Made by a program: the position numbers and the translations under genes
Origin: an uncultured Candidatus Saccharibacteria bacterium
Lineage (GTDB): Bacteria; Patescibacteriota; UBA1384; 2-12-FULL-50-11
Reading direction: 5' to 3'
Length of the DNA: 64,000 nt
Assembly (NCBI GenBank): GCA_964599405.1
Contig: CAZRED010000001.1
Span: 218,323 to 282,322 of the forward strand
Shown: positions 39,834 to 57,819 of the stretch, piece by piece
How the letters are laid out: every line of letters starts with the position of its first letter
Position numbering within the stretch: the stretch's first letter is position 1
Notes under the pieces: model-generated
Databases searched by the model: none
What the model was told of the DNA's origin: nothing
The model's input: the letters and a program-made list of their open reading frames with translations, nothing else

Positions 39834-41950
39834 CCAACGAAATCCCCACTAGATACGATCACACCAAAGAGCCGGATTTGTATAAATCTTGGGAAGACGC
39901 TGGTGAGTTCAAACCAACTGGCCAAGGCGAGCCGTTCTCCATCGTTATCCCGCCGCCTAACGTCACCGGCGATTTACACTTAGGTCACGGCCTAACTTAC
40001 GCCGTTCACGACGCCATTGCCCGCCATCAGCGCCGGCTTGGGCACGACGTGCTAATGCTCCCCGGGGCCGACCACGCCGCCATTGCTGTTCAGCATTTAG
40101 TGGAGAAAAAACTTCAGAAGGAAGGTAAGCGCCGCACCGACTTGGGCCGCGAGAAATTCCTTGAAGAAGTTTGGACCTGGATTAACTACTACCTGCCGCG
40201 GATGCAGACTTCATTGCGCCGTTTCGGATTGTCGGCCGATTGGAACCGGTTCCGTTTTACGATGGACGACCAATCCCAAGCGGCCGTCAAAACCGCTTTT
40301 ATCCGCCTGCACGAAAAGGGGCTGATTTACCAAGGCACCTATTTAATTAACTGGGATCCGAAACTCCAGACCGCCGTTTCCGACGACGAAGTTATCTACC
40401 AACCAGGCACCGGCAAGCTTTACTGGATCAAATACGGCCCGATCTCTGTTGCCACCACCCGGCCGGAAACCAAGCTGGGCGATACCGCCATTGCCGTTAA
40501 TCCGATCGATAAGCGTTACGCCAAATACGTCGGTAAAGAAATTGAGTTCAAAAACGAGCAGGGGCAGCTACAAAAGTTGCCAGTGATTGCCGACGAATCC
40601 GTCGATCCGGAGTTTGGCACTGGCGCCCTGAAAGTTACCCCCGCCCACGATCCGCTCGACTGGGAGCTGGGCCAAAAGCATAAGTTAGCCAGCAAACCGG
40701 TGATTGATCAATTCGGTAAAATGACCGCTGACTGCGGGCCGTACGCCGGGCTGAAAGTAGCGGAAGCCCGGGAGAAAATTGTTGCCGATTTGGATAAATT
40801 AGGGCTGCTGGAAAAAGTGACCGAGCACGACATCCGCCAACCAATATCCGAACGCTCCGGAGCAATTATCGAGCCGCTACCGTCGAAACAGTGGTTTTTG
40901 AAAACAACCGCCCTGAAAGACGCGGCCATGGCGGCGGTAAAAAGTGGTCAGATTAAATTTCACCCGAAAAGCGTCGAGAAAGTCTACTTCAATTGGCTGG
41001 AGAACTTGCACGACTGGTGCATCTCCCGGCAGCTCTGGTGGGGACATGAGATCCCGGCTTTTTATTGCATAAAAAGCGCGGGGTCAGAAAATGAAAAGCC
41101 CATAATCGCCACGAAAAAGCCGGATAAATGCCCAGTTTGCGGAAAGTGTGAAATGATCCAAGATCCAGACGTACTGGACACCTGGTTTTCGGCAGGGATT
41201 TGGCCGTTCTCGACACTTGGCTGGCCTCTCGACTCCGCTCGAGGTAAACCCAGCGACGACGATTTCAAACGTTACTTCCCAACCAGTCTTCTGGAAACCG
41301 GTGCCGACATTCTGTTTTTCTGGGTCGCGCGGATGATTATGATGAGCCAAGCGCTAACGGAGCAAATTCCGTTTAAAGAAGTTTATTTCCATGGTCTAGT
41401 CCTGGACGAGCAGGGACAAAAGATGAGCAAGAGCAAAGGAAATGTCTTAGACCCGCTAACATTAATCGACAAATACGGCGCCGACGCCTTACGGATGAGC
41501 CTGATAGGTGGGAACAGCGCTGGTGTGTCACAACGATTCTCCGAGCAGAAAGTTCTCAAGTATCGCAATTTTGTGACGAAAATCTGGAATGCTAGCCGGT
41601 TTGTGGCCATGACAACCGGAAGTCCCAAGTCCCAAGTCCCAAGTCCCAAAATTGATGAAGTTGAAAAGAAGTTTTTAGCTAAGTTAGAAAAAATTGAGAG
41701 AGATAACCAGCGGTTGATGGCCAACTACAAATTGGGCTTGGCCCTAGAGGAACTGTATGAATTTTTCTGGCACGACTTTGCCGATGAAATGATTGAGTAC
41801 CAAAAGAAAATTATTCAGGAATCCACCGACCCGGCTCGAGTCCGACAAAGTCAAAACTTTCTGACATCGGTGCTGAAACGGCAATTAACTCTGTTGGAAG
41901 ACTTTTCCCCATTTGTCGTCCGGACGATTAATAAGGATATGCTCGGGTGA
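39830..41950 (+). CDS. valS: valine--tRNA ligase (short form, 706 aa, lacks C-terminal coiled coil)
   Basis: PPPNVTGDLHLGHG (HIGH) and KMSKSKGN (KMSKS). ValRS-type PPPNVTG signature. Confidence 0.85.
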   Translation: MTNEIPTRYDHTKEPDLYKSWEDAGEFKPTGQGEPFSIVIPPPNVTGDLHLGHGLTYAVHDAIARHQRRLGHDVLMLPGADHAAIAVQHLVEKKLQKEGKRRTDLGREKFLEEVWTWINYYLPRMQTSLRRFGLSADWNRFRFTMDDQSQAAVKTAFIRLHEKGLIYQGTYLINWDPKLQTAVSDDEVIYQPGTGKLYWIKYGPISVATTRPETKLGDTAIAVNPIDKRYAKYVGKEIEFKNEQGQLQKLPVIADESVDPEFGTGALKVTPAHDPLDWELGQKHKLASKPVIDQFGKMTADCGPYAGLKVAEAREKIVADLDKLGLLEKVTEHDIRQPISERSGAIIEPLPSKQWFLKTTALKDAAMAAVKSGQIKFHPKSVEKVYFNWLENLHDWCISRQLWWGHEIPAFYCIKSAGSENEKPIIATKKPDKCPVCGKCEMIQDPDVLDTWFSAGIWPFSTLGWPLDSARGKPSDDDFKRYFPTSLLETGADILFFWVARMIMMSQALTEQIPFKEVYFHGLVLDEQGQKMSKSKGNVLDPLTLIDKYGADALRMSLIGGNSAGVSQRFSEQKVLKYRNFVTKIWNASRFVAMTTGSPKSQVPSPKIDEVEKKFLAKLEKIERDNQRLMANYKLGLALEELYEFFWHDFADEMIEYQKKIIQESTDPARVRQSQNFLTSVLKRQLTLLEDFSPFVVRTINKDMLG
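41621..41648 (+). repeat. (AGTCCCA)x4 tandem heptanucleotide repeat inside valS
   Basis: Four perfect tandem units read directly. Encodes GSPKSQVPSPK. Confidence 0.9.
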
Positions 41951-42303
41951 TGATTGGGCGATTCTGGTTTTACTTGCCGGTATTAATTATCATCGCCGGA
42001 CTGGGCAGTTATTTGAGCTGGATTCACACTCGCCAGGACAGCGAGTTGGCGGCCATCGAGCTAGCTAGCGACAAGCAGCGTCAAGCGAGTATGGCAGTCT
42101 ATCTAGCCGCACAAACTGACGGCCGGAAAATGATTAGCTTGGCCAAGACCGTTGAAAAAACGGCTCCCGAACTGGTTGAGCCAATTGTTCTAAAGGCTTA
42201 CGAATTACTACCGAACAGCCGTGATGCTGCCATACTAGCAAGCCACTACCGGCCGGAGCTGAAAGAAAAAGTCAAAGAACTCGATCCGTTGTATCAAGAA
42301 TAA
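41947..42303 (+). CDS. small membrane-anchored hypothetical protein
   Basis: N-terminal TM (FWFYLPVLIIIAGLGSYLSWI). 4-nt overlap with valS. Confidence 0.45.
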   Translation: MMIGRFWFYLPVLIIIAGLGSYLSWIHTRQDSELAAIELASDKQRQASMAVYLAAQTDGRKMISLAKTVEKTAPELVEPIVLKAYELLPNSRDAAILASHYRPELKEKVKELDPLYQE

Positions 42304-42329
42304 AAAAGGGGTTGGCTTACGCCAACCCC
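42302..42329 (-). terminator. rho-independent terminator (GGGGTTGGC-TTAC-GCCAACCCC plus T6 on the minus strand), bidirectionally placed
   Basis: Perfect 9-bp stem with U-tract on the minus strand. Lies between convergent genes. Confidence 0.7.
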
Positions 42330-42349
42330 GAACTTTGTGAACATCGCCA

Positions 42350-43135
42350 CTACAGACGAATCCTTTTTCCAGATTCAGGAAGCCTCTCACTGGGCAGTGA
42401 CGGCTTGCCGCCCAAGGGATCAAACGGGTTGATATCCGCTGGTCCCAAGTAGATTGCCCAGGGTCGAGCCGCCTCCAAGACGAGATTTGGATTGCGAGAG
42501 GCAAATTTCGTTGTTTTGCCGGTCGACAGGTCCGTCTTAGCCTCCACAAGTAGTGGGCTGTTTTGGCAGGTTGCTCGTACTATTAGCAGTGCGCTCCCGA
42601 CTGGAGCTATCACTGTAACCCCGTTCGCACTAGCACCATCGCTTGCACGAATGTCCAGCTTTTCGAGGTCGCTCACCCCGTAGAGGGAGAGAATCTCTCT
42701 CAAGCTCGGTGTCTGCTGCTGCCTCCGGCTGTAGCCGAAGCTCATTGTTAGCTGCAGAGCATTGATCTTTTCCGACCCCTTCCTTAGGGATGCCTCGTAC
42801 CTTGCGTCCCATTGACCAGCAACCTTATTGTTGTCGATCATCTGGCTGTCGTGCTCGTACCATGTATAGCTACGAAAGCCTTTTTTGTAGTCGAGCTGCA
42901 AGTATGGCGTCCCAAGCAAATCCGAGAGTTGCTCATCGGGTCGATCGATAGAAGTAAGGGCTTTGTAAAGCCTCGGGCTGTTCTTGACCCAGGTAGGGTC
43001 TCCCGAAACAGGCTCGACGATGCTGGTGGCGACCATTGAGGCCGAGACCACCGGATCGCCAGCAACTGGCATTTCTTGTGGCCGCTGGCACCCGCAGAGC
43101 ACCAGAATGGCAATGATAAGCGATACCGTTCTCAT
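42350..43135 (-). CDS. lipoprotein (lipobox VLCGC)
   Basis: MRTVSLIIAILVLCGCQ signal peptide with lipobox. Start taken at M22 of the track ORF. Confidence 0.55.
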   Translation of the reverse strand: MRTVSLIIAILVLCGCQRPQEMPVAGDPVVSASMVATSIVEPVSGDPTWVKNSPRLYKALTSIDRPDEQLSDLLGTPYLQLDYKKGFRSYTWYEHDSQMIDNNKVAGQWDARYEASLRKGSEKINALQLTMSFGYSRRQQQTPSLREILSLYGVSDLEKLDIRASDGASANGVTVIAPVGSALLIVRATCQNSPLLVEAKTDLSTGKTTKFASRNPNLVLEAARPWAIYLGPADINPFDPLGGKPSLPSERLPESGKRIRL

Positions 43136-43243
43136 TATGTGCGCACCACCTCCGTGGTGAATTGCCAACAGCATAGCACTTCCCGCCCTCCATGTCATCA
43201 GAAAGGGCTCACATTTTTACCAAGGCTGGTATGCTATAAGCAG

Positions 43244-44818
43244 ATGAGGGGAGGGTTTTTGAAAAGAGCAGGACGGGTTGTACTATTTTCGATGGCAACC
43301 CTTGTAACATTTTCGGGCGTATTCGGGCTGGCAAGCCCCGCCATGGCCATTGGTGAGCCAAAGTTTTCATACACAAGTAAGACCCTCAATCTCAGGCGAA
43401 TCAGTGAAGCTAAAGTGACGGCATCTGCTCGGTTCCAGGTCTCAGAAGATGGCGCGCCAGACGAGTTGATAGGGTACGTAACTGTTAATGTAGCCTACTC
43501 ATTCCTCTCAAAAGACGGGGTTTTTGAACGTTGGAAAGTAGCCGACGTAACTTTCACCAATCCGAAATTCGACGCTTACGGTAGCAAGCAGAATAAAAGC
43601 AAGGCAGAGGGGTCGCTGCTTGAACTCTATAATGATGACCAACAACTTGTTGCTAGGTTCGATTTCCGTACATCAGTACCTACCTTTCGTTACGTAGTTA
43701 TCAACCAGGAGCCGGCCCAGGTTGGTGGCAACCCAGTCAACCACCCAGGTGTTTTTGTTGGGGTTGCCGATGGTAACGAATTCATACCTACTACCGGCCA
43801 GGGCTCGTTGAGCGAAAAGCACCCGGTGCAGGCCTTTGCCTATGCCAGCACTAGTTCGGGTAGCATCGCTTCCATCGGCTCAATTGCCGGGGAGACATAC
43901 GTACCATACGCCAGCGTCTTCAACTACAGCCTAAAGACTGATGGTTCGGCAGGAAGCGCCGTGAGCAAGGAGCAAGCACAGGGATGGTTCTCTGGCCAAA
44001 ACCTTGGGACACTCTCTATTGAACGCTTTGAGGAAGCCGGCAACCCACCGTACATAGACCTCCCTGGCAGTACTGCTCTGCAGCGGCCGGCGCTGCGTTT
44101 TGTTTTAGCCCATATCGGCGGCGAGGGGTCCGGCTGGGTGCTTTGGGGTAATGTTGATTGGCTAATATTCGAAGCCTACTTACTGGAGGGTGGTAATGCC
44201 ACAGAAAAAGTCCCGAATATTTTCCTCGTAGCCAACGACGAGTTTCGCAAGGACTTCATTTATGACGCCGACATAACAGGAGTGAAAAAAGGAAAATACG
44301 ACCCGATCCCGGCAAATTTCGACATTAATCGCAGCCAACACGAAAAGTTACTAACCTACATCTATAACCACGTACCAAAAGACCCGGCAAAAGAAAATTG
44401 TGGCGAGGAAGCAGTGTATAGTATCGGCCCGAATAGCACCGACGATTATCGTTACGTTAACTTAGTGCCGGGCTGGGCAGATAAGTTGGCCGGGGAGTTA
44501 AACGGTAACTGCATCACAGTCCCCGCAGCAGGTTGGGCGCAGTTTTGGGGAGTAACCGTCAATAGCGCCCCCTTCACCGCCACTGCCGACGGCGGCTGTA
44601 GTGCCACTTGGATTGTTACCGGTGGCAACATCTTGGTTGGCCCTCCCGCTATCCTCAATGAGCTAGGGATTAACCCAAACGAATTAAATATGATATCGCG
44701 TGCCGCCATTTGTATATACGACTGGGTCGTTAACCCAATCGTCGACTGGGCAACAAGTGTGATTCTGTACGCGGCCGGGATTGCCCGCAGCCCGTTTAAC
44801 TTCCTCTACCATGCGTAG
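43244..44818 (+). CDS. secreted hypothetical protein, first gene of the T4SS-like operon
   Basis: Signal peptide MRGGFLKRAGRVVLFSMATLVTFSGVFGLASPAMA. Hydrophobic C-terminus. Stop overlaps the next start (ATGCGTAG). Confidence 0.55.
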   Translation: MRGGFLKRAGRVVLFSMATLVTFSGVFGLASPAMAIGEPKFSYTSKTLNLRRISEAKVTASARFQVSEDGAPDELIGYVTVNVAYSFLSKDGVFERWKVADVTFTNPKFDAYGSKQNKSKAEGSLLELYNDDQQLVARFDFRTSVPTFRYVVINQEPAQVGGNPVNHPGVFVGVADGNEFIPTTGQGSLSEKHPVQAFAYASTSSGSIASIGSIAGETYVPYASVFNYSLKTDGSAGSAVSKEQAQGWFSGQNLGTLSIERFEEAGNPPYIDLPGSTALQRPALRFVLAHIGGEGSGWVLWGNVDWLIFEAYLLEGGNATEKVPNIFLVANDEFRKDFIYDADITGVKKGKYDPIPANFDINRSQHEKLLTYIYNHVPKDPAKENCGEEAVYSIGPNSTDDYRYVNLVPGWADKLAGELNGNCITVPAAGWAQFWGVTVNSAPFTATADGGCSATWIVTGGNILVGPPAILNELGINPNELNMISRAAICIYDWVVNPIVDWATSVILYAAGIARSPFNFLYHA

Positions 44819-46970
44819 GTTGGCCTTACTGTTCCTGCTCGGCGGTAGCTTACTATTTTTCACGCCGCACTTAGACCAGGCTTCGAGCCAGTTGGGAGTT
44901 GGTTTTGTTACCTCGGCCCAAGCCCAGGACGGCGAAAAGTGCGACGACAGTTTCACGGGTACTGGGCGGAAGTGCACACTGGCCGAGCGGATTGTTGACC
45001 CCAGCGGGTTTGTCTACCCGTCTTGGGTAATTGTCAGGGGGATAATTAATATCCTCCTTATTCTGGGCCTGCTGGCAATCTCTTTCTCCAACATCACCCG
45101 AATCAATATCGACACCTACACCATCAAGAAGGCTCTGCCCAACCTATTGATTGGGATCGTCTTAGCAAACGCCAGCTTACTGATTATTCGTTATATAGCG
45201 GATATTTCCACGGTGGCAATTTACTTTTTTGTTGAGCGTTCCCCCGGCTTTGATATCGAGGGTCAAACCCTCCTGTTTCAAGATTTTATCCGCGTTGTGC
45301 TCGGAAATGTCGGAATAGGTTCATTGGTACAGATAATTAACTTAACTGGTGGCGCTGCAGCGTTTTCGGCGCCGTTAATCGTGTTGGTTTTGGGGTTAAT
45401 CCTTCTTATCGGAATGTTATGGCTGGCGTTAGTGATGTTTATTCGACTGGCCGCTATTTACCTGCTTACCATCCTCGCCCCGTTGGCGTTTGTTGCCTAC
45501 GGCATACCAGGTCAAGAAAAGTACTTTACCCAATGGTGGCAGCTTTTCACAAAATGGATGTTTATATTGCCGGCCATGACTGCCGTCTTTTGGCTGATAC
45601 TTCAAATATCCAGGCAGGGTGGGGACTCTATATTAAAGATTGCGATAATGTATATGCTCTTCTTCTTCGCGCTGGCTATTCCGTCCAAGTTTGGCGGATC
45701 TGTTATCGATAAAGCTACCACCGCTTTTAAAAAGTACAGCGGCACCGATGCCGCCGTGAAAGCATCAAAAGAATACGCAGCCCAAAAAGGTCAACAGATC
45801 GGTTATCGCATGCCGGGCGTTGCTAGATTCCAGGGTTGGAGAGAGCAGCAAAAAGCCAATGCGGAGAAAGATATTGATCAGCTGAAGCGGCGCGGCAAGG
45901 CAAAAATTCTTGCCGGCAAGACTGGGCTTAACAAGCAGAAACTAGAAGTGTTAGAGAAAGAATTGGCTAGTCAGGAATTAGAAGTGGACGCTAATCAAAG
46001 GATCAAGGCTGGGGAGCTCAGAGACCGATTTGGATTTGGGACGACTTTGGACGTCCGGGAGATTAGGGCCGACTACGCCAAGCAGAAGGCGGAAGGCCAC
46101 AGGGATGCTGAAGCGGCTAAGAAAAAACTAGAATACTTAGATGCCGGCGAAAACAAAGAAGAACTGCAAAGGGTGTTCGACAAGGTGAATGAATCTACCG
46201 TCCTTACGGGAGAAGTGGGGAAAAACGAGGGCATCGCTAAGGGTAACTTGGCTCGAGAAGAGCTGATTCTTTCTAAGCACGTTGACGACTATAAGAAGGC
46301 TAAAGAAATTTACGATCGGCTTGATAAGCAGCTGCAAAGTGGGCAGGCGCTAAGCCAAGACGACCTCGATCTTATGAATAAAAACGGCCAGGTAATGACC
46401 AAGGTTAAGGCAAACTACAACCTGATTATCGGTGGCAATATGGCCGGGCACGGGTTCTTCTCTGGCAAACACATAGAGCAGGCAGCAAATGCAGTCGGCA
46501 TAGAAAAAACTATCATTTCGGCCAAAAAAGCTCAGTCTGCCAAAGCCGTGGACGCGGGGGTTAAGGCAACGATTGAAGAGGCGCTGAAAAATGAAACCCT
46601 TGAGGAGGCACTCGCTAGTTACGAAGAAATTAAAGACAAAGACAAGCTTGTTAAAGGCGATACGCTTGGAGTGGAGATGAAGGATCAGCACAAGTTTGTG
46701 TCCCACACACAGAAGCTTGTGGCTTGGGCTGGTAAACAGAATGACCACAGGAGGGATGGCGCACTTACTGAGTTGGGGGGTATGTTAATTGACGGCAAGG
46801 GAACAGTTAACCTTAATGGAGTTGATTACATAGACAAGGACGTGTTGGCTGACGCCATAGAAGCTGCAAAGCCCGAGGATAAGAAGAGAATATTTAGAGA
46901 TATTGCAAAAAATAGCCAATTCTTAGTCGGGTCTGGCGGTTATCAAGCCGGCCACTACGAGGATAAATAA
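44811..46970 (+). CDS. VirB6/TrbL-like polytopic membrane protein with long C-terminal coiled-coil region
   Basis: Signal sequence, about 6 TM helices (residues about 80-330), then about 380 aa K/E/A-rich predicted coiled coil. Confidence 0.55.
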   Translation: MRRLALLFLLGGSLLFFTPHLDQASSQLGVGFVTSAQAQDGEKCDDSFTGTGRKCTLAERIVDPSGFVYPSWVIVRGIINILLILGLLAISFSNITRINIDTYTIKKALPNLLIGIVLANASLLIIRYIADISTVAIYFFVERSPGFDIEGQTLLFQDFIRVVLGNVGIGSLVQIINLTGGAAAFSAPLIVLVLGLILLIGMLWLALVMFIRLAAIYLLTILAPLAFVAYGIPGQEKYFTQWWQLFTKWMFILPAMTAVFWLILQISRQGGDSILKIAIMYMLFFFALAIPSKFGGSVIDKATTAFKKYSGTDAAVKASKEYAAQKGQQIGYRMPGVARFQGWREQQKANAEKDIDQLKRRGKAKILAGKTGLNKQKLEVLEKELASQELEVDANQRIKAGELRDRFGFGTTLDVREIRADYAKQKAEGHRDAEAAKKKLEYLDAGENKEELQRVFDKVNESTVLTGEVGKNEGIAKGNLAREELILSKHVDDYKKAKEIYDRLDKQLQSGQALSQDDLDLMNKNGQVMTKVKANYNLIIGGNMAGHGFFSGKHIEQAANAVGIEKTIISAKKAQSAKAVDAGVKATIEEALKNETLEEALASYEEIKDKDKLVKGDTLGVEMKDQHKFVSHTQKLVAWAGKQNDHRRDGALTELGGMLIDGKGTVNLNGVDYIDKDVLADAIEAAKPEDKKRIFRDIAKNSQFLVGSGGYQAGHYEDK

Positions 46971-46972
46971 TA

Positions 46973-47761
46973 ATGGACACGGATATCTTACTTACCGACC
47001 AAGAAGAAGGTCTCCTGGATAGCCTGGTCGCGCAGCTCTATCAAAGTGGCGCGGACATCAATGGGGCAATTAACCAGATCGATGGATTGGGAGGTAAGAA
47101 AACTGACTTATTCTCCTCGGCTATTTATAGCGTCTCCTTTCATCAGCGGGAACGCGAAGACTATGTGATCGCCTCGATTTTCGGCAAAAAAATTACGAGC
47201 TCTAATAGCAGAAAAGTAATTATGCTAGCTCTGGCAAATAACCCCACCTCTCCAGATGAAGCTCTGCGGGCACTCAATATCCCCGAGCTACCGGCAACTG
47301 CTATCGGCACAGTACAAGACCAAGAAGTTCTTAACCAGCTCGCTATCTACAAAACCGTCGAAGAGAACCTCTACAAACTGCAAACCCAATTAATCACCCG
47401 ATACAACGTGATGCCGGTGTTCCCGCTGTTGAAAAACATCCCGGCAGAAAAGTTACAAGAGATTTCAGCCGGAATCGAAAACTACATCAATTACTGCCTG
47501 GGGCTGGAAGAAAAAGTGCTATTTTCCGACCTGCCCTTACCGCCAGCCCTCGAGAAACTATTGATGGAGGTGTCGCCTAGCCTGCCAGCCTTCAAAGCCG
47601 AGTCAACACTGGAAAGAATTAACTACATGAAAGAACTTTTGGTTATCTGCAGCGTGCTAGTCGAAAATTCCGCTCGGCTTGGCCAATCACCAGACTGGGA
47701 GATAGCTGAAATCGCCGGTAAGGTGTTAGCCCTAACAAATACCCCAATCAGCTACCGTTAG
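46973..47761 (+). CDS. hypothetical cytoplasmic protein within the T4SS-like operon
   Basis: 262 aa, no TM, no motif. Confidence 0.45.
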   Translation: MDTDILLTDQEEGLLDSLVAQLYQSGADINGAINQIDGLGGKKTDLFSSAIYSVSFHQREREDYVIASIFGKKITSSNSRKVIMLALANNPTSPDEALRALNIPELPATAIGTVQDQEVLNQLAIYKTVEENLYKLQTQLITRYNVMPVFPLLKNIPAEKLQEISAGIENYINYCLGLEEKVLFSDLPLPPALEKLLMEVSPSLPAFKAESTLERINYMKELLVICSVLVENSARLGQSPDWEIAEIAGKVLALTNTPISYR

Positions 47762-47842
47762 TTCAATTGGCTGGCTAACCCGATTAAGTTACACTATTCA
47801 CTATGGAGGGGTATGCAGTTGAAAACGGTACTTTGGGGATAG

Positions 47843-48262
47843 ATGCAATTTAAAGTTCCCCAAAACATCGATATGGAGGATAAGATTATTGGGCCGCTGA
47901 CGCTGACCCAGTTCTTTTACTTGCTCTTTGGCGGGGTGATTCTCTATATTCTCTTCAACAAACTAGTACTGTCTGGTTTGTCGTTACTGTTTTGGGTGTT
48001 GGCAATTCCTATCGGGACATTCAGTTTCGCGATGGCCTTTGTGAAAATCCAAGACCGGCCGTTCCCCTCGTTCTTTTTCGCCATGTTGAAATACGCCTCG
48101 ACGCCTCGAGCTCGGGTCTGGCAGCACTACACTCGCCCCAACCAGGTCAAGCCGAAGGTTGTTGCACCGAAAGCGGCGACCCCGAAAAAATCCTTCGACA
48201 CCGTCCGGGTGAGTGAATTAGCCCAGGTGATGGATCAAGATTTGCCGAGGGCTCAAGAGTGA
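47843..48262 (+). CDS. PrgI/VirB3-like small two-TM protein
   Basis: MQFKVPQNIDMEDKIIGPLTLTQFFYLL N-terminal pattern of the PrgI family, followed by two TM helices. Immediately precedes the VirB4-like gene. Confidence 0.5.
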   Translation: MQFKVPQNIDMEDKIIGPLTLTQFFYLLFGGVILYILFNKLVLSGLSLLFWVLAIPIGTFSFAMAFVKIQDRPFPSFFFAMLKYASTPRARVWQHYTRPNQVKPKVVAPKAATPKKSFDTVRVSELAQVMDQDLPRAQE

Positions 48263-50928
48263 TGGCCAAGAAAGCCCAAAACAAACCGGTTGCTACCCAG
48301 AAGTTCCTGCAGATCGAGCGAATTCGCGACGGCATCGTTATCTTGAAAGACGGCCGGCTGCGCAAGATTGTCCGGTGTATGCCGTTAAACTTTGATTTGA
48401 AAAGTGAAAAAGAAAAAGAAGTGGCGATTTATCAGTACCAAAACTTTTTGAATTCGCTGAAGTTTCCCCTGCAAATCGTCATCCAATCGCGACGGGTGGA
48501 CTTGTCGGCCTACGTGGAAAAAGTTGAGCAGGCTTCGGCCAACGAAATTAACGAACTACTCCAAAAACAGTCGAAAGACTACCTGGAATTCATCAAAATT
48601 CTAAGCGAACAGGTTAATATCATGGAGAAGTCTTTCTATATGATTGTCGGCCATACGGTGAAAGGAGCGGTAGAGCGCCAGACCTTCGTGGACAAAATCC
48701 TGGGGAAAAAGCGAATTGGTCTGACCGATGTGACCGACAAAGACTTTGCTGAATACAAAACAGTCTTGAGTGAACGGACCCGCACCGTCGCTGGCCGACT
48801 GAATTCGCTGGGCATCCAAACCCATGAACTAGACACCCGGGAAATTATTGAGCTGTTTTACAACTCCTATAACCCCGAGGAATCCTTCACTCAACACTTA
48901 GCCGACCCCGAACAAGTAACGGCTCCTGTGGTACAAAAAGGGCAGGATTTGCTGAAAAAAGCCGGGATTTCAGAGCTGTTACCGCCAGCGACTAACCCGC
49001 CAGCGGCAGCTGCGCCGGCTGGCGCTGGCGAGGTTAAGATTGACCAAGCGGCGGCGGCCGATATTGGCAACGAAGCCAAAACAATGCGCAAAACCACCGT
49101 TTCCCAAATTTTCAACCGGCTCGGCATTAAAGCCACCGACGCCGAAAACACCGAAGCGGTTCTGCGCCAGGGTATCGCCAGTGTGCTGGACGTGATTGCC
49201 CCGGGAGGCATGAATATCACCCCCAACTACGTGCAGCTAGGCAGCTACTATCTCCGCACTCTTTTTGTTTACACCTACCCGCGCTATCTCCAGGCCAACT
49301 GGCTCTCGCCGATTATCAATTATGACACCACGCTCGATTTAGGAATGTTTATCTACCCAATCGAAACCAATATTTTGGTCGGGCAGTTGCGCCGGAAAAC
49401 TACCCAATTACAGTCCAGCTTACAGATTGAGTCCGAAAAAGGGCTGGTTCGAAACCCGGAGCTGGAGACAGCCGTTGGCGATATCGAAGAGCTACGTGAC
49501 ACTCTTCAAAAAGGGGAAACCCGCCTGTTCCAGATGGGGCTCTACTTCACCATATACGCTAGTACGATCGACGAGCTTAATAAACTTTCCAAACAGTTCG
49601 AGTCAATCCTTGGCGGGCAGTTAATCTACACCAAGCAAGCCCTCTTACAAATGGAGCAAGGCTTCAACGCCACTATGCCGCTGCTCGACGACCAGATGGA
49701 TATCGTCCGCAATCTCGACACCGCTTCGCTCTCCACCACCTTCCCCTTCACCTCGGCCGAACTATCGCACCACGACGGTGTGCTCTACGGCATCAACTTG
49801 CACAATAGCTCACTGGTATTGTTTGACCGCTTCCGCATGGAGAACGCCAATCAGGTGGTTTTTGCCAAATCTGGCGCCGGTAAATCTTACGCCGTTAAGC
49901 TAGAAGTAATCCGTTCCTTGATGCTCGGCTCCGAAGTAATTGTGATTGACCCAGAAAACGAGTATCGCACCCTCGCTCAAGCCGTTGGCGGCACCTACGT
50001 TGACCTGTCGCTGAACTCCACCCAGAAAATTAACCCGTTTGATCTACCGAAATACCGCGAAGACTCTGGCGAAACCGGTGAACAGTTGCTGCGCAGCACT
50101 GTCGTGGCCGTTCACGGTCTGGTGAGCCTGATGGCTGGCAGTCTTAACCCCGAGGAAGACAACTTGCTCGACAAGGCCCTTTACGAAACCTACGCCCTGC
50201 GTGACATCACCACCGACCCAGCCAGCCACGCCAACACCCCGCCAACCATGAGCGATTTGGTAACAGTGCTCCAAAACATGAGCAGCACGGAGTCGCTGGT
50301 TAATCGCCTCGCCAAATACACCGACGGTAGTTTTGCCGGTTTGTTTAACTCCCAGACTAACATTGATATGAACAATAAAGTCACCGTTTTCTCGATCCGC
50401 GACATGGAAGACGAGCTCCGACCAATCGGCATGTACATGGCCTTGAACTACATCTGGGCACGGGTGAAAAGTGATTTGCGCAAACGAATGATGGTAATCG
50501 ACGAGGGCTGGGTGCTGATGCGCTACGAGGACTCGGCCAAATTTGTGAACGCCATCGCCAAACGAGCCCGCAAATACTACTTGGGTCTGACAGTGATTAG
50601 TCAAGACGTTGAAGATTTCTTGGGCTCCAGTTACGGCCGATCGGTAGTTAGCAACTCTTCAACCCAACTATTACTTGGCCAGTCGACCACGGCTATCGAT
50701 AAAATTGCCGAAGTTTTCAAACTGACCGATGGCGAGAAGTTTTTCTTAACCGAGGCGGAAGTCGGCCAGGGCTTGTTCTTTGCCGGTAATAACCGGGCAG
50801 CCATTCAAATTGTTTCGTCTTATACCGAAGATCAAATTATTACCACCGATCCGAAACAGCTGCTGGAGCTCTACGGCATTGGTGGGCAGTCCACTCCGCC
50901 CGAAGTGAATACGCCGCCAAATGGCTGA
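48259..50928 (+). CDS. VirB4-like T4SS ATPase (PrgJ/TrsE/CagE family)
   Basis: 889 aa. Walker A FAKSGAGKSYAVK in the C-terminal half, Walker B MMVIDEGW. N-terminal VirB4-type domain. Confidence 0.85.
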   Translation: MMAKKAQNKPVATQKFLQIERIRDGIVILKDGRLRKIVRCMPLNFDLKSEKEKEVAIYQYQNFLNSLKFPLQIVIQSRRVDLSAYVEKVEQASANEINELLQKQSKDYLEFIKILSEQVNIMEKSFYMIVGHTVKGAVERQTFVDKILGKKRIGLTDVTDKDFAEYKTVLSERTRTVAGRLNSLGIQTHELDTREIIELFYNSYNPEESFTQHLADPEQVTAPVVQKGQDLLKKAGISELLPPATNPPAAAAPAGAGEVKIDQAAAADIGNEAKTMRKTTVSQIFNRLGIKATDAENTEAVLRQGIASVLDVIAPGGMNITPNYVQLGSYYLRTLFVYTYPRYLQANWLSPIINYDTTLDLGMFIYPIETNILVGQLRRKTTQLQSSLQIESEKGLVRNPELETAVGDIEELRDTLQKGETRLFQMGLYFTIYASTIDELNKLSKQFESILGGQLIYTKQALLQMEQGFNATMPLLDDQMDIVRNLDTASLSTTFPFTSAELSHHDGVLYGINLHNSSLVLFDRFRMENANQVVFAKSGAGKSYAVKLEVIRSLMLGSEVIVIDPENEYRTLAQAVGGTYVDLSLNSTQKINPFDLPKYREDSGETGEQLLRSTVVAVHGLVSLMAGSLNPEEDNLLDKALYETYALRDITTDPASHANTPPTMSDLVTVLQNMSSTESLVNRLAKYTDGSFAGLFNSQTNIDMNNKVTVFSIRDMEDELRPIGMYMALNYIWARVKSDLRKRMMVIDEGWVLMRYEDSAKFVNAIAKRARKYYLGLTVISQDVEDFLGSSYGRSVVSNSSTQLLLGQSTTAIDKIAEVFKLTDGEKFFLTEAEVGQGLFFAGNNRAAIQIVSSYTEDQIITTDPKQLLELYGIGGQSTPPEVNTPPNG

Positions 50929-52225
50929 GCCGGCGTTGCAACTCCCCGACGACGATATTGAACCGGTCGAACCAAGCGACCCTGATGTTTTATACATGCC
51001 CGGCGCCGAACCGCCGCCGGAGTCTGTTGCTGACGATGGCCAAACCATTGATGCCCGCCCACAAATTAACGAACGTCTTGAGCAGCAGAAGCGCGCTAAA
51101 GCCCAAAGCGAAGTAGAAAAAGTAAAATCCGGCGAACAGAAACTGAAAAAAGCGACCAGCACACCGACAGCGGGCAAGTCCAAGTTCGGAGAGGCGGCCG
51201 CCGGTGCGGCACTGTCTGGCGGCGGAGACAAAGAAGACCGAAAAGAAAGAGCCAAAGAAGCCTTGAAAGAAGAGGCTAAACAACAAGCCAAGCAGTACGC
51301 GAAACAAATCGCTCGTCAGGCGGGTGCGACGATAAAGAAAGCGGCTGTTGAGGCTATCGCCGCCACCTCAGAGTTCTGGGTTCCTGCGCTGGTTATCATT
51401 CTAATTATCATTGCAATTGTCGCCATTATCTTTGTCCTCTTCTCCTTTGACGGTGACGGCGGCAAAGGCCCCGCCCAGTACCCGGAAACAGCCCTGCAGC
51501 GCCAGCACTCCAACTTTTTACTGGCAATTTCAGGCGATAAAATTGCGAGCGATGTGGCAGTCAAAGAAGTGATCGACAGCGAGCTCGAGCGCTACGATCG
51601 GATTAAGACCAACGCCGACCGTTTCAACCCCGACCTGTCAACTACCATTGCCGCCAAGAAAATTGAACTGGACGGCAAGCTGATGGGGCTGCTAATTGAA
51701 AAAAGTGTCGATCGGCGCAAAGTCTTGCGCGACCAATTCCAAGGGGAGATGCGGGCGTTTGAAGCCACGCTGCCGTTTGGCAGCTGGATTGCGGCGTTGG
51801 CCGAAGAGCGGGTAGGCCAGCCCAATCTGCAATTCTGTTCGATTACTGGCGCCACCGCTAAGGTAGCCTGCGCATCGTTTACGTCCACTATTATGTACCT
51901 GGCCGGCGTGCCCAATGCCATCGTTGGCAATACGACCGAAGTTTGGAACAACAGCGCTCTAAAAGTAGTGATCGATCGCAGCCCCGCCCCCACGGCAGGG
52001 CAGTACGACCCTGCCAAGCTTCAGCCCGGCGATATTATCTGGTGGGGCAATGGCAGCTGCAGCAGCGTCAAGTACTCTGGTAAGCTCTTTGACCACGTTG
52101 GTTTTTATGTTGGTAACGGCATGGCGATAGACACCAGCTCCAGCCGCGAAACGGTCGAAAAGCGCTCGGCGCCGCGTCGTGATAGCTGCCGGCTATTTAA
52201 CGGGGCTAAAAGGTACGGAAGATGA
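50921..52225 (+). CDS. membrane-anchored NlpC/P60 (CHAP-like) peptidoglycan hydrolase
   Basis: Acidic N-terminus, K/E-rich segment, TM (VPALVIILIIIAIVAIIFVLF). C-terminal FCSITG (Cys) and HVGFYVGNGMAID (His box) motifs. Confidence 0.55.
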   Translation: MAEPALQLPDDDIEPVEPSDPDVLYMPGAEPPPESVADDGQTIDARPQINERLEQQKRAKAQSEVEKVKSGEQKLKKATSTPTAGKSKFGEAAAGAALSGGGDKEDRKERAKEALKEEAKQQAKQYAKQIARQAGATIKKAAVEAIAATSEFWVPALVIILIIIAIVAIIFVLFSFDGDGGKGPAQYPETALQRQHSNFLLAISGDKIASDVAVKEVIDSELERYDRIKTNADRFNPDLSTTIAAKKIELDGKLMGLLIEKSVDRRKVLRDQFQGEMRAFEATLPFGSWIAALAEERVGQPNLQFCSITGATAKVACASFTSTIMYLAGVPNAIVGNTTEVWNNSALKVVIDRSPAPTAGQYDPAKLQPGDIIWWGNGSCSSVKYSGKLFDHVGFYVGNGMAIDTSSSRETVEKRSAPRRDSCRLFNGAKRYGR

Positions 52226-55200
52226 CAAATAAAAAAGTCTTTCAGCTATTGGCAGCAACGTTTCTGGGCCTGTTGATTGTTGCCCAACCGCTCTTTGTCG
52301 TTGGCCAGTGGCGGTTTGACCGAATCCAAGCTCAACAAGACGACGGCGTTGAGCCCGACAATACCAACGTTTCCCCGGAAGACCAGCTTGGCGACGCCTC
52401 CCCAATCGATTCGCTCGAAGAGCTCGATCCGGTACTGCTAACTAGCCCCGCCCTGACCATTGCCCCGCAAGACGCTAACAATATCCGTGAAGGCCGGGTG
52501 GACGTGCGGGTAACCGACTACTTAATTTACTTAATTACCCCCGTCGAGAAGGGTGGTGGTGGCTTTAAACACATTAAGACGCAACGAATTTTGAAGAACT
52601 ACGACACCGACGGCGTCGGCCGTTTTGATCGGGAAACCCTAGCCGCTATCGATGAAGACGGCTCGGTAATCTCGGCCCACAACGACGGCCAGGCGGTGGA
52701 CGTTTCAGAAGTTGGGGCGATTACCTGCAAAATGGTTGAGCGACGCTATTTGGGCGGCTCAACTACCAAGTGGCAACGCCCCAAACCAATCAAAGTGGCC
52801 TGGCAGAGCCGTGACGGCATCCGCCGCAACCCTACCCCGAAAGGACCAAGCCTCTTTGAGGTCGCTAACACCATGACCGCCCAAAGCATCCTGATGATGC
52901 TTAACGAGTCCGGCGAGATGGACGACTTTGCCGACTACGTCAAAGGGCTCTCGATGGGAGAAATCTTTCGCTACGTCGGCGCTAATATCCTGTTGAAAAA
53001 TTACGGCGCTGGCGATATCCAAATCGACCCACTTTCGCACGATGTTCCGGAGATTCTCGGGGCGCTGTTGTTGCAACGCTCACTCCCCGACTTGCCAACC
53101 AACCTACCAATTGCCGACGGCGATCAAGACATTCGGATTGCGGTCGCTCGCGCCCAAATAGAAGAATTGCTCAACTTGCCGGCCGGCTCGCTACGCGGTT
53201 TCGGCTGGGACGCTATTCTAGCCAGTACCGGCAAGCGAACTTTAGAAAATGCTTTGGGGCTCCCAACGCTAACCTTTGACAAGAAATCACTCGAGGAGGC
53301 TTTGGGTAACGATGCTGTTCAAGCCGCCCTTAAAGAATTCGCTCGCAGCGATCAATCGTTTGGAGTAATGGACGGTACCGTTGGCCTAATCCAGGCCAAA
53401 GATAACCGTGGCTTTGTGTGGGCCGGCGTTAATTTGCTGGCCGATGCTCTACGTTTAAGCCCCGAGCAGCGCCAAGCATTAGTGGCTGCCGTTAAAGCCA
53501 ACCAACAGCCGACAATTCAGCTAGAGACGGTCGGCGCCGACCAAGCTGTCCCCATCGATGTGCTGACCTCGATGTTTGTGGCTAGCGGCAACGAAACCCA
53601 GATACTAAAAGATTTTGGCCAGCGCTACCTTAGCCAAGTGCTCTCCAAGGCCGTGCCCAATCAGCTGTTGGGGCTGACTCGCGAGGTTTTGGGCGACTTA
53701 GCTAACTCTGACAGCAATGTTAAATACGGCGACCTGCGCCGCAGCATGGGGGTACGCAAAATTGCTTCGGACAGCTCGGTTTCCGTTGAAAATGCTGACA
53801 ACTTGGACGGCGGCGCCGGCAACAGCCGCTACTACGGCGAAATCGCCGAAGCCCTTAATGCCCAGCTCGACCTGTCGGTACAGACAATCGGCGCTGGCGA
53901 TATTACAGCGATGCTCCGCGGTGACAACTCAGGGTTACTGGCCAAGGTTGGCGGTAACCAGGCCGATAAAGCCCTCGGTTGGTATAACGGCACGGGCTAC
54001 GCCATTATCAACGGCGACAAAACTTTTGAGCAGGGTCTGAACGAAATCTTCAGCAACTCGTTAACCCAGCTAGTTGGCCTGCCGGCGGGTGTGGAGGTCA
54101 GCTTAGAAGGCGATCTCTACCGTAACTACGGTAACGCTCTGGCCGAAAACCGGCTGGGCTTTGCCTTAACGGAAGGCGGCTCGGCTACCGACATCAACCC
54201 CCAGACGCTTTATCAAGGCTTTGGACTGCGGGAAAGCCGGGGCTTGGCCGAACTGCGAGCCGATAACGCTTACTGGCAACGCGCCGACGTTATCGACGCC
54301 CTGGAGTTTTCCGATATTCGGCTGGGTGTGGCCCTAGGCAGTAGTGCTGCTTACCTGCGTGGCCAGAGCGATAACAACGCCTTTTCGCGCCTAGCCGCCC
54401 AAGGCAACTTATCAACCATTACCCGCGACAAAATTCTTAACTACCTAGACCTCGAAGACAACTACAAGTTAAGCAACGACGAGCTAAATGTTATCGTCGA
54501 CACCCTCGGCAACTGGGACAGCGCTGACGTTACCGCCCAGCAGCGGGTGCTTAGCTTGGGTCTAAAACTAATCGGCGTCACCCTCGACCAGCGAACAACG
54601 TTCGAAAAAGGAGCGATTCTCAATATTGCCCAGAGCCAAAATAGTGCCGAGCTAGTTGACCGACTGATTGAGCAAGGAGTCCGGCAGTTGGCCGGAGCTT
54701 TGGGAGTCAACGTCGCCAGCTTTGAAACGGCTGACTACAAGATACTTACCACCCTGCTAACCGATGCTTACAACGGCTCGCTGGCCGGCAGTACCGGTGC
54801 CTACGGCTATACCGCTGAAAACTTGCTAGTTAAATGGCTGACCGACGCTACCGGTATTCCGGTAGTCACCGACGTCCGGACTTTCATCGACGGTAACGTC
54901 CGAACTGGCCTCGAATCCTGGTCGGCCGCCCAGATGGTGAAGTTCGCCAATACCTACCTGCCCGGCGAAGTGCAGCTCACCTACGACGAGCTGCGTAATG
55001 CCATTAATTTAACCGACAGCGCGTTAATTAACGCCCGGGCTAGTGAGATTGCCGCCAGCAGCGGCGGGGTGGTGGCGGACTACGTCGACCAGGCTCGTCG
55101 GGAACTGATGCAGCAGTTCCGCGACAACGGCAAATACAAAATTTCCGACGCCTTTTTGCGCCAAGCCGAGATCCCGGTACCGGCTAACTTTTCGAAAGTG

Positions 55201-56502
55201 ATGTTCTCCGGAACCAATCAAGAACGTTCTGAAATGCTAACTAGCTCGTTGTTTGCTTTCCTCGATAACGAACTGCGCAAAATTAACCCCAACTACACTT
55301 CGGGCACGCTCGAGCGTTTGTATAACGGCGAAATCGGTGTCGGACAGATGGACCAGCTGGTTATCAACATTGTCAGCGGCCAGGCCGGGTCGCTTGGCGG
55401 GTTATCTACCAGCTTCCTCGGCAGCTTCTACTCGTTTATCTCTTCCCCGGATAAAACCGCCTTCTTCACCGACGATCGCTATCAAGACATGTGGGGAACG
55501 ATGGAGAACTGGTTTGGCAATAATCTTGGCATCTCGGGGCTACCGCCGGGCTTTGCTAAATCGGTGTACTACGCCTCACAGAACGATTGGAATTTCGACG
55601 CCTCAATTATCGAAAATGGCCAAGTATTAGTGCCCTCCATCAACCAAATTGGTAGTGATTTGCTGGCCAATCGCATAACCCAATGGGCTGACTCAACAAT
55701 GGGCTTACCGGCCGGATCGGCCTATCAATTATATCGGGCCGTCAACGCCATTGGTGCTGCCTCGCGGGCTTTGGCCGCTGCCAGGGCGGTCGGCGACGCC
55801 AGCCAAATCACCCAAGCCCAAAGTGGTTTGAGCACGGCCCAAGCTACCCTGGCCACCATCGCAATAACTATCGCCTTAAACGCCTGCGCGGCCTGCCAGC
55901 AGTTCTTTGCTTCAGTAGACCAAGCCCTGGCCGCCCCGCCCGGCTTTACCAATGCGGCAGTTGCTGGCGCCATTGCGATGGCTTTTGGCCTGGGGCCAGC
56001 TGGCTTAATTGCTGCGGCGGCAATTTACTTATTTGGCGTCTACAAGGTTGATTACCTCTGCCCCATGCCGCCTCCCGATCGGTTTGCCTATCCGCAGTTC
56101 GACAATCCCCAAGACGCTCTAGCGCCGTCGGACAGTAGCTACTACGCCGACCCGGCAGTAGTAGTAAAAGATAGCCCAGCACCAGGCCAGAACAAATTCG
56201 ATTGGGACGACGGCGTACCGTTTAAAGACGCCAATAACCCCGAGCTGTGGATGGCCTGGAGTCGCTACTTCACCGGCAAGCTGCTTGACGCCACTATGAG
56301 CTATGGCGCGAGCGTTGATGGCGCCGGCAAACCGCTGCAGGTAATTACCTACCGTCAGGCCAACGTCGAGTTCTTTGCACCGCGCGCCGCTGCCACATTT
56401 GGTCCGAGCGAGGCCGGCAACGATCGGCTGGGCCTAGGCTTCACCCAGGCTTCCACTAAAACCACCGACTGGGTGCATGCCGCCTTTGGAGGGTTTTTCT
56501 AA
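52222..56502 (+). CDS. giant secreted/surface protein (1426 aa), possible peptidase M15-like motif near N-terminus
   Basis: Signal peptide. SAHNDGQAVDV resembles the VanY/M15 S-x-H-x-x-G-x-A-x-D zinc motif. Hydrophobic C-terminal segment. Confidence 0.55.
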   Translation: MTNKKVFQLLAATFLGLLIVAQPLFVVGQWRFDRIQAQQDDGVEPDNTNVSPEDQLGDASPIDSLEELDPVLLTSPALTIAPQDANNIREGRVDVRVTDYLIYLITPVEKGGGGFKHIKTQRILKNYDTDGVGRFDRETLAAIDEDGSVISAHNDGQAVDVSEVGAITCKMVERRYLGGSTTKWQRPKPIKVAWQSRDGIRRNPTPKGPSLFEVANTMTAQSILMMLNESGEMDDFADYVKGLSMGEIFRYVGANILLKNYGAGDIQIDPLSHDVPEILGALLLQRSLPDLPTNLPIADGDQDIRIAVARAQIEELLNLPAGSLRGFGWDAILASTGKRTLENALGLPTLTFDKKSLEEALGNDAVQAALKEFARSDQSFGVMDGTVGLIQAKDNRGFVWAGVNLLADALRLSPEQRQALVAAVKANQQPTIQLETVGADQAVPIDVLTSMFVASGNETQILKDFGQRYLSQVLSKAVPNQLLGLTREVLGDLANSDSNVKYGDLRRSMGVRKIASDSSVSVENADNLDGGAGNSRYYGEIAEALNAQLDLSVQTIGAGDITAMLRGDNSGLLAKVGGNQADKALGWYNGTGYAIINGDKTFEQGLNEIFSNSLTQLVGLPAGVEVSLEGDLYRNYGNALAENRLGFALTEGGSATDINPQTLYQGFGLRESRGLAELRADNAYWQRADVIDALEFSDIRLGVALGSSAAYLRGQSDNNAFSRLAAQGNLSTITRDKILNYLDLEDNYKLSNDELNVIVDTLGNWDSADVTAQQRVLSLGLKLIGVTLDQRTTFEKGAILNIAQSQNSAELVDRLIEQGVRQLAGALGVNVASFETADYKILTTLLTDAYNGSLAGSTGAYGYTAENLLVKWLTDATGIPVVTDVRTFIDGNVRTGLESWSAAQMVKFANTYLPGEVQLTYDELRNAINLTDSALINARASEIAASSGGVVADYVDQARRELMQQFRDNGKYKISDAFLRQAEIPVPANFSKVMFSGTNQERSEMLTSSLFAFLDNELRKINPNYTSGTLERLYNGEIGVGQMDQLVINIVSGQAGSLGGLSTSFLGSFYSFISSPDKTAFFTDDRYQDMWGTMENWFGNNLGISGLPPGFAKSVYYASQNDWNFDASIIENGQVLVPSINQIGSDLLANRITQWADSTMGLPAGSAYQLYRAVNAIGAASRALAAARAVGDASQITQAQSGLSTAQATLATIAITIALNACAACQQFFASVDQALAAPPGFTNAAVAGAIAMAFGLGPAGLIAAAAIYLFGVYKVDYLCPMPPPDRFAYPQFDNPQDALAPSDSSYYADPAVVVKDSPAPGQNKFDWDDGVPFKDANNPELWMAWSRYFTGKLLDATMSYGASVDGAGKPLQVITYRQANVEFFAPRAAATFGPSEAGNDRLGLGFTQASTKTTDWVHAAFGGFF

Positions 56503-57233
56503 TGCGCCAGAAACGTCCAGGAATCTCGGCGGTAATTGTGATTGTCGCGGCACTGGTGATTATTCTCGGAATAATCGTTTTCCCGATTATTATTGTTGGA
56601 ACTTACTTAGGGGGAGGGCTGGATAAAGCAACGGGTGCGGTTGGGGCAACGCTAACCAGTAGCGAGTGTATCACCCCGCTCTATCCACCCGTGGCTGACG
56701 AGCAGAAATTCGCCGCCGCCATCGACACTTACGTCGCCAAACTAACCCCGAGCTCTCCATTTGTGGGCATGGGAAAGGTGTTCGTTGATGCTGGTAAAAG
56801 TTACGGCATTAATCCGGCCTGGGTGGTCAATATTGCCCGAAAAGAATCGTCGTTCGGCATTCACATACCACCAAACTCCAATAATGCTTTCGGCCGAACC
56901 GCCACATCAGAGCAGCCCGGCGTTGAGCTCAGCGGTCGCAAGTGGTATCGATACGACTCTTTTGAAGCTAGCATCCCCGTCCAAACCGAATATCTAAAAA
57001 GACGCTATATCGACCAAGGCCTAGTGACGATCGAGACCATTACTAACGTTTATGCTCCGCCGTCAGAAAACAGCACCGGCACGTATATCGAACAGATGAA
57101 GGAATGGATTGGTAGAGTGATGGCTCTGGCTGGTAACGGGGTTACTTGCCCAGGTTCGGCGGTCGTGGCAATTAAGGCAGCGCCGACAATTTTGTTGGCT
57201 GGTATATTGAAAGGGAGTATTAATGAAAAATAA
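56502..57233 (+). CDS. membrane-anchored glucosaminidase-like (FlgJ-type) peptidoglycan hydrolase
   Basis: N-terminal TM. ARKESSFG ... NNAFG ... YRYDSFEASI pattern of the mannosyl-glycoprotein endo-beta-N-acetylglucosaminidase domain. Confidence 0.55.
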   Translation: MRQKRPGISAVIVIVAALVIILGIIVFPIIIVGTYLGGGLDKATGAVGATLTSSECITPLYPPVADEQKFAAAIDTYVAKLTPSSPFVGMGKVFVDAGKSYGINPAWVVNIARKESSFGIHIPPNSNNAFGRTATSEQPGVELSGRKWYRYDSFEASIPVQTEYLKRRYIDQGLVTIETITNVYAPPSENSTGTYIEQMKEWIGRVMALAGNGVTCPGSAVVAIKAAPTILLAGILKGSINEK

Positions 57234-57819
57234 GTTCCTCCTGTATGGTTTGATAGCTGTCGCCCTAGTTGTAGCCTTCTTCATCTATCGCTCGACCCTT
57301 TTCCGGCTGATTGATACTAACCCCAAGCGCAACACTACTGACATGGCAATTAGCGCCCCGGTTCAGTTTGTTTTCTCAAAAGAAGTGGCCGCAACCGACA
57401 GCTTAACCATTGAAATTAGCCCACCCCAAGACGGTACAATCGCGGTTGCCGGAAAAACAGTGACCGTTCAAACCGGCCTGAAATATTACACCGACTATAC
57501 TATTACCCTGAAAAGCGTCTCCAGTGTTGGAGGCAAGAAAATTGACAGCGTTTCGGTTCGTTTTGTTACTGGCGGATTGGATCTGGCCGGAGTTGAGAAG
57601 CGCAACCAGCTCTTATCAACGCTCCCCTACACCGAAGAGCGTTTCTCGGTTGATTACACCGTCGGTAACCGAGTATTTACGGTGCAAGTTTTTAGCGAAC
57701 CGGTTGAAGACGTAAAACGAGCCGCCTTAGAGTTTCTGGGTCAGCACGGCGTTACCGAAGCCACCGATAAGATTGAATTTTATATCGTACCTAGCGTCTC
57801 CGGCCAGGCTGGCCCGTAG
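57223..57819 (+). CDS. membrane-anchored hypothetical protein, last gene of the operon
   Basis: N-terminal TM, beta-rich remainder. Confidence 0.45.
   Translation: MKNKFLLYGLIAVALVVAFFIYRSTLFRLIDTNPKRNTTDMAISAPVQFVFSKEVAATDSLTIEISPPQDGTIAVAGKTVTVQTGLKYYTDYTITLKSVSSVGGKKIDSVSVRFVTGGLDLAGVEKRNQLLSTLPYTEERFSVDYTVGNRVFTVQVFSEPVEDVKRAALEFLGQHGVTEATDKIEFYIVPSVSGQAGP

Follow-up and report, generated by a model that had tools for sequence, protein, structure and literature searches.

The type IV secretion systems (T4SSs) of Patescibacteria have been described as MPF-FATA-like, lacking a relaxase and proximal to dnaA (PMC12102498). In one tractable species the system is essential for epibiotic growth; its function has not been established (PMC10633639, PMC12102498). 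Pilin arrays near virB4 are reported for many Patescibacteria, and Quinonero-Coronel et al. note "peptidase and lysozyme homologues" downstream of virB4. The closest described case is the T4SS locus SEML1_0006-0019 next to dnaA in 'Ca. Southlakia epibionticum' ML1 (Wang et al. 2023, PMC10633639). Here SEML1_0007, which directly follows VirB4, encodes a protein of 1,113 amino acids (aa) that is essential for epibiotic growth; Table S2 of the same study gives it, on structural grounds, the ECOD domain Hedgehog/DD-peptidase (aa 951-1105), and its Foldseek neighbours carry the name Peptidase M15B/M23 (PMC10633639). For a Patescibacteria T4SS locus, then, such a large protein with a LAS domain has been recorded before, though only in a table, and the domain listed there is contiguous and C-terminal. 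This analysis concerns another giant protein, of 1426 aa, encoded in a 64,000-nucleotide stretch (the window) of contig CAZRED010000001.1 from an uncultured Candidatus Saccharibacteria bacterium. With a probability of roughly 0.55, it forms an extracytoplasmic, membrane-tethered LAS zinc domain that is assembled from both chain ends, with a largely helical insertion of ~1,060 residues as scaffold.

Like SEML1_0007, the giant is a large hypothetical protein encoded after VirB4 and before a lysozyme/glucosaminidase and an Ig/PEGA-like exported protein, beside recF-dnaN-dnaA. The order in the window (VirB4, 434-aa protein, giant, glucosaminidase-like protein, Big_5 protein, recF/dnaN/dnaA) is of the Southlakia type. 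The domain itself is arranged differently: that of SEML1_0007 is contiguous, whereas here 1,259 residues separate the proposed zinc ligands of the two chain ends, a split arrangement that is new relative to the Southlakia form. No Saccharibacteria protein of ~1,113 aa appeared among the phmmer matches of aa 1-1200, and SEML1_0007 is compared by its published description only. A literature search found no publication linking Patescibacteria T4SSs with M15.

A preliminary description of the window, made by a model from the sequence, had given the open reading frame (ORF) exactly as it is found, with an ATG start. Its start overlaps the upstream stop as ATGA and its stop the next start as TAATG, so that it is translationally coupled to both neighbours within the operon. 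The same description had called this operon T4SS-like, and a PrgI-like gene (PF12666) and a CD1110-family VirB4 gene just upstream bear this out; the operon is an MPF-FATA-like, relaxase-less, dnaA-proximal Patescibacteria T4SS. Coordinates are collected in Table 1.

Table 1. Position of the T4SS operon in the window, its genes and the proposed parts of the giant protein.
Feature	Position (nt)	Strand	Basis
Operon extent	43076-57819	+	
Polytopic membrane protein, 729 aa, ~6 transmembrane segments, VirB6/TrbL-like candidate	44781..46970	+	hydropathy; syntenic gene on Berkelbacteria contig L001 matches PF19590 TrbL_3
PrgI/VirB3-like T4SS membrane protein	47843..48262	+	PF12666, E 7.3e-12
VirB4-like conjugal-transfer ATPase, CD1110 family	48259..50928	+	NF045971, E 3.7e-110, 369 bits vs cutoff 325
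434-aa protein, one transmembrane segment (aa 142-181), candidate cell-wall hydrolase	50921..52225	+	PF05257 E 0.002, PF00877 E 0.002
Giant ORF, 1426 aa	52222..56502	+	coupled to both neighbours
N-terminal hydrophobic segment, aa 5-31, signal peptide or signal anchor	52234..52314	+	Kyte-Doolittle mean 2.35
N-half of proposed split LAS-like domain, aa 75-212	52444..52857	+	predicted model, conservation, weak Pfam LAS-family matches in relatives
SAHNDGQAVD, proposed zinc ligands H153 and D160	52672..52701	+	conservation; motif as in EndoT5 S64-K-H66-..-D73
~1,060-residue insertion between the halves, aa 213-1269	52858..56028	+	model of parts; repeats
Pair of highly conserved hydrophobic helices, aa 1206-1227 and 1245-1275, candidate membrane hairpin	55837..56046	+	hydropathy, conservation
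C-half of proposed split domain, aa 1270-1426	56029..56499	+	predicted model, conservation
D1416-W-V-H1419, proposed M15C-type D-x-x-H with third zinc ligand	56467..56478	+	D 40/42, H 40/42; co-conservation in superfamily
243-aa membrane-anchored protein, glucosaminidase-like	56502..57233	+	PF01832 E 3.6e-6, 28.1 bits vs cutoff 30.2 (sub-threshold)
198-aa exported Ig-like (Big_5) protein, last operon gene	57223..57819	+	PF13205 E 2.6e-5

Near the N-terminus, SAHNDGQAVDV had been read as a fit to the signature S-x-H-x-x-G-x-A-x-D. This reading holds: the pattern occurs once (aa 151-160), with a chance expectation of ~2e-4 for such a composition, and it is near-invariant in 42 homologues (S151, H153 and A158 each in 41/42; G156 and D160 in 42/42). 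With this conservation it is no chance match. In the predicted model the N-half (pLDDT, the model's per-residue confidence score, mostly >90) opens with two helices and a strand that ends in R122, followed by H153-x6-D160 and a beta-meander with the invariant W194-Q195; there is no long helix past the Asp. Q195 (W194-Q195 at window 52801-52806) is the most conserved residue of the superfamily, being present in 67/67 sequences of one alignment and invariant in another. It sits 35 residues past D160, the same distance as between Asp and His in hedgehog, and may take part in substrate binding or act as a surrogate ligand.

The second motif is a different matter. E-x-x-H, named for it in the preliminary description, occurs nowhere in the 1,426-aa sequence, and neither does H-x-H. 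The M15 arrangement, with E-x-x-H (M15B/D) or D-x-x-H (M15C) tens of residues past the Asp in one contiguous domain, is therefore absent, and the sole D-x-x-H (D-W-V-H, 1416-1419) lies seven residues from the C-terminus, with D1416 1,256 residues past D160. Only four His are present in the whole protein (117, 153, 273 and 1419), and their conservation differs widely: H117 is found in 24/42 homologues, H273 in 1/42, and H1419 in 40/42, as is D1416. The C-half is predicted (pLDDT 82-98) to be an alpha/beta block that ends helix-strand-strand, with the terminal His on the last strand; C1280, Q1373, T1376 and R1378 are invariant. Taken alone, it gives no LAS signal. The proposed role of the terminal His draws on the predicted model, the elimination of the other His residues, and co-conservation. 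Together, the halves would form a LAS/M15-like zinc domain with H153, D160 and H1419 as ligands. Reading the terminal aromatic residue as part of an outer-membrane beta-signal was rejected, since the organisms are monoderms and it is the His that is conserved.

Evidence that the two ends belong together comes from the family. The 42 full-length homologues (36-82% identity) align end to end, with conservation maxima at aa 151-200, 1201-1300 and 1401-1426; those with names stem mostly from Berkelbacteria and generic "Patescibacteria group" metagenome-assembled genomes, and all are labelled hypothetical. Three more distant members (P0054, P0055 and P0056; 24-35% identity, 1,850-2,080 aa) keep the N-terminal motif, and the two with intact C-termini both end D-x-x-H-x-G-F. 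An exhaustive phmmer search with aa 1-1200 gave 176 cluster representatives at 50% identity, nearly all giants of ~1,300-3,240 aa, which always match best on aa ~75-370. The split arrangement appears to be common to more than 150 giants of this kind. Of 158 distinct superfamily proteins examined, 149 (1,299-3,239 aa) were scorable at both His positions, the terminal one being the His of an H-[IV]-G-[FYW] that closes the chain. Both His are kept in 139/149 and both are lost in 4/149; the N-terminal His alone is kept in 4/149 and the terminal His alone in 2/149. The odds ratio for co-occurrence is 69.5, with a Fisher p of 5e-5 that is indicative only because the loss events are not phylogenetically independent. 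The His, Asp, His set is thus present and co-conserved in sequence, and would converge in space. From Asp to terminal His, the distance is 1,139-2,685 residues in the superfamily (median 1,726), 1,259 here, and 60 in EndoT5.

The four proteins that have lost both His (P0141, P0170, P0181 and P0189; 2,331-3,239 aa) retain the terminal aromatic residue and their giant size. By their sequences they look like zinc-site-dead paralogues or orthologues, and their keeping of the giant scaffold suggests that it has a function independent of the metal site.

Comparisons with known LAS/M15 families were less informative at the sequence level. Searches of Pfam, NCBIfam and PDB sequences with the whole protein, its pieces and the 42-sequence family profile returned nothing significant or LAS-related; with the threshold relaxed to E <= 10, neither the protein nor any of its pieces matched a Pfam or NCBIfam hidden Markov model (HMM). 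In a splice test, the N-half was joined to the last 25 residues in 30 divergent members, each of which was scanned against Pfam at E <= 10. Of the twelve families matched, five bear M15 or hedgehog names: Peptidase_M15_4 (in 4 members), VanY (in 3, best E 0.0086), Peptidase_M15_2, Peptidase_M15_3 and HH_signal, all sub-cutoff. DUF5715 (5 members) and Extensin-like_C (2), which we take to belong to the same clan, were matched as well. These LAS matches span the first-motif region only. The control, in which 29 C-terminal blocks were scanned by themselves, yielded no LAS family and ten singleton matches, all unrelated. Profile alignment (hhalign) with T5 Lys and with a 38-sequence M15C profile was non-significant (probability <= 4.5%, and 2-4.5% with the M15C profile), and only the first motif aligned with any confidence (E 0.009-0.09). 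When spliced constructs were aligned greedily end to end, D1416/H1419 were placed on EndoT5 D130/H133, again not significantly. Sequence evidence, in short, backs the first motif alone.

The two halves were modelled together in a deletion construct. A Foldseek search of this good model against the PDB gave no match at E <= 0.001; the best (E 1.3) was unrelated. The listed figures of the structure comparison are 6.9 for MepA (129 residues aligned), 6.7 for the VldE C-terminal domain, 6.3 and 5.8 for Sonic hedgehog, 5.8 for Drosophila hedgehog, 6.2 for the Streptomyces albus Zn DD-carboxypeptidase, 6.1 for LysB4, 5.7 for the T5 L-Ala-D-Glu peptidase, 5.4 for VanXYc, 5.3 for Ply500, and 5.0 for RB49 M15C. 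The modelled order of secondary structure appears to match that of EndoT5, which ends H133-V-E-L-V. The LAS/M15 peptidase head claimed near the N-terminus thus survives as to its first motif, but not as a contiguous domain with a family HMM match or a Foldseek PDB match.

These results leave some room for the view that the N-terminal motif is an incomplete or degenerate M15 remnant, that the C-terminal block is unrelated, and that the two pack together only because a deletion construct was modelled. In that case the conserved terminal His-x-G-aromatic would have another role, such as that of a sorting signal or of a structural strand at the chain end. The lack of Foldseek support, the restriction of the sequence-level LAS signal to the first motif, and three members without the terminal His that retain the terminal aromatic all speak for this view, which is nevertheless judged improbable; beside them stands the co-occurrence of the two His across the superfamily.

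If the split domain is formed, the next question is what it does. It is predicted to cut peptidoglycan peptides for T4SS passage or for breaching the host wall. Compared with the M15C peptidases (EndoT5, Ply500, LysB4 and RB49), which are soluble lysins with a contiguous domain of ~130-150 aa, 60 residues from Asp to His and significant PF13539 matches, the giant is membrane-anchored, has no significant HMM match, and carries an extra subdomain of ~100 residues in addition to its far longer Asp-to-His distance. MepA (M74) and the S. albus enzyme (M15A) share only 7-16% identity with it. Both use H-x-H as second motif, which the giant lacks. It also differs from the Hedgehog N-terminal signalling domain, a contiguous eukaryotic ligand with a zinc site whose part in catalysis is debated.

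The most serious competing explanation, though clearly the less probable one, is that the reassembled LAS domain binds zinc or peptidoglycan yet is catalytically inert, a pseudo-enzyme akin to hedgehog or the LytM domain of PrgK. It would anchor or position the giant in the wall or regulate neighbouring hydrolases, with the CHAP/NlpC-like and glucosaminidase-like neighbours doing the cutting. Three positions ahead of the terminal His, just 20/56 superfamily members have an Asp, which fits inertness. In this clade, however, D1416 (40/42), the intact H/D/H set, R122 and the invariant Q195 make up the pattern expected of an active enzyme, and loss of both His is rare (4/149).

An active or inert wall-directed domain would have functional parallels in the VirB1-like hydrolases of monoderm T4SSs (PrgK of pCF10, TraG of pIP501, CwlT of ICEBs1 and TcpG of pCW3), which are likewise membrane-anchored, cell-wall-directed and encoded in T4SS operons near VirB4; PrgK contains a LAS-type (LytM) domain. 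VirB1-like hydrolases combine SLT/muramidase and CHAP/NlpC-P60 domains in one chain of ~300-900 aa, whereas the giant has neither by Pfam, is much larger, and has a discontinuous LAS domain. Here the lytic-type domains lie in separate neighbouring genes, with weak CHAP/NlpC and glucosaminidase signals.

The modelled parts of the insertion (aa 213-400 and 1095-1269) are helical, with low to moderate confidence; the insertion is proposed to serve as a scaffold. Hydrophobic stretches lie at aa 5-31, which is no lipoprotein signal because it is without Cys, and at 1206-1227 and 1245-1281. They are followed by a highly conserved alpha/beta block of ~150 residues that runs to the C-terminus. The hydrophobic C-terminal end of the preliminary description is accordingly not found, and a C-terminal membrane anchor was rejected, as the hydrophobic segments stop 150 residues short of the end. 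The second helix of the hairpin (aa 1245-1275) is broken at GLGPAG, and the hairpin directly precedes the C-half; the two halves could meet only if its helices make zero or two membrane passes. Just four Cys are present, all invariant in the 42 homologues: C169 (window 52726-52728), C1222 (55885-55887), C1225 (55894-55896) and C1280 (56059-56061). C169 in the N-half and C1280 at the start of the C-half are kept in most distant relatives and could form a disulfide that staples the halves together, while C1222-x-x-C1225 is located within a hydrophobic helix. The earlier statement that the remaining roughly 1200 residues have no recognisable repeats needs amending for weak internal repeats in a profile self-comparison by hhalign (290-349 with 619-671, 87%; 337-394 with 659-715, 67%; window 53089-54366) and for an L-G-L-P-x-G-S/T-like motif that occurs three times where 0.04 are expected, including aa ~1160-1167 (window 55699-55722), and that recurs in distant homologues too.

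A more speculative reading, to which a low probability is attached, centres on the loop. The split LAS domain would be a zinc-dependent clasp that closes a helical loop of 1,100-2,700 residues with its conserved hydrophobic hairpin, the loop being an envelope-spanning or host-membrane-inserting T4SS element. It would stand in functionally for missing outer-channel or adhesin parts, and its correct assembly would be signalled or gated as the active site forms.

Finally, the giant had been suggested to be a surface-exposed effector or adhesin with a peptidoglycan-modifying head for host-cell attachment. Its length in the superfamily (1.3-3.2 kaa, that is, thousands of residues) varies mostly in the weakly repetitive helical insertion, as expected of a host-facing surface, and PrgB-type adhesins have not been detected in the T4SS loci of Patescibacteria (PMC12102498). 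Set against this, the gene is fixed, single-copy and syntenic, and coupled to machine genes in divergent lineages; hydrophobic anchor segments lie at both ends of the insertion; and the peptidase head, needing both termini, cannot be detached as an N-terminal module. Five further loci have the giant as the final forward gene of their T4SS cluster, directly next to (recF)-dnaN-dnaA; among them are members at ~22-25% identity and of up to 3,091 aa. The predicted model favours the LAS-type zinc domain part of the suggestion, while fixed synteny and anchors disfavour a secreted effector or adhesin, which is rather unlikely. An adhesive role of the insertion could coexist with a split, membrane-tethered LAS domain. 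Overall, the best reading of the giant is not an effector but a cell-wall peptidase or zinc module that is conserved in association with the T4SS.

The window is chromosomal, with the giant gene in an origin-proximal Gram-positive-type T4SS operon, and the host of this operon looks like a Patescibacterium of Berkelbacteria type. Upstream of the operon lie leuS, tsaD, a Mur ligase gene, FemAB and polA, and downstream recF, dnaN, dnaA and two tRNAs; other window genes are housekeeping ones (PPDK, FtsK, RNase J, PNPase and a DHH protein). A scan of ORFs within the operon and beside it recognised no relaxase, coupling protein or VirB2-type pilin. Given the leuS/tsaD and recF/dnaN/dnaA flanks and the lack of a relaxase or coupling protein in the window, origin from a mobile element was rejected. 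The CHAP/NlpC-P60 similarity of the 434-aa protein is weak, both Pfam matches being below cutoff. Accompanying hydrolases vary between lineages: Peptidase_C39_2 (L001 14384-15571; also the P0117 locus), Phage_lysozyme (L022 6377-7768), and the glucosaminidase-like protein of the window (56502-57233). A PEGA/beta-propeller-like protein recurs across several loci of the giant gene. The ORFs of 580 and 729 aa at 43076-46970 overlap by 38 nt; the related contig L001 has a single TrbL_3/VirB6-like gene of 1,276 aa in their place, and another copy of the locus (L002) is called as 764 and 517 aa; a frameshift, a programmed split or mere differences in gene calling may lie behind this. ORFs of 118, 282 and 262 aa (window 41947-43198 and 46973-47761) have no Pfam matches. 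Window 1-5200, with a guanine-plus-cytosine content of 0.40-0.46 compared with 0.50-0.55 elsewhere, encodes a DUF2254 membrane protein of 836 aa, along with two ORFs that match nothing in Pfam, and may be acquired DNA.

For the biology of these epibionts, the analysis identifies an unnamed superfamily as a fixed gene of the Patescibacteria T4SS locus across divergent lineages, and gives it a testable biochemical handle in a proposed zinc site made from residues more than 1,100 positions apart. Should the clasp arrangement apply, it would be a new way to build a secretion-system conduit from one discontinuous enzyme fold. If the split LAS domain is real, its insertion would be among the largest known within a small catalytic domain. 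The split would also explain why annotation pipelines label these giants hypothetical, and would suggest that the task of the T4SS includes cleaving cell-wall peptides where epibiont and host meet.

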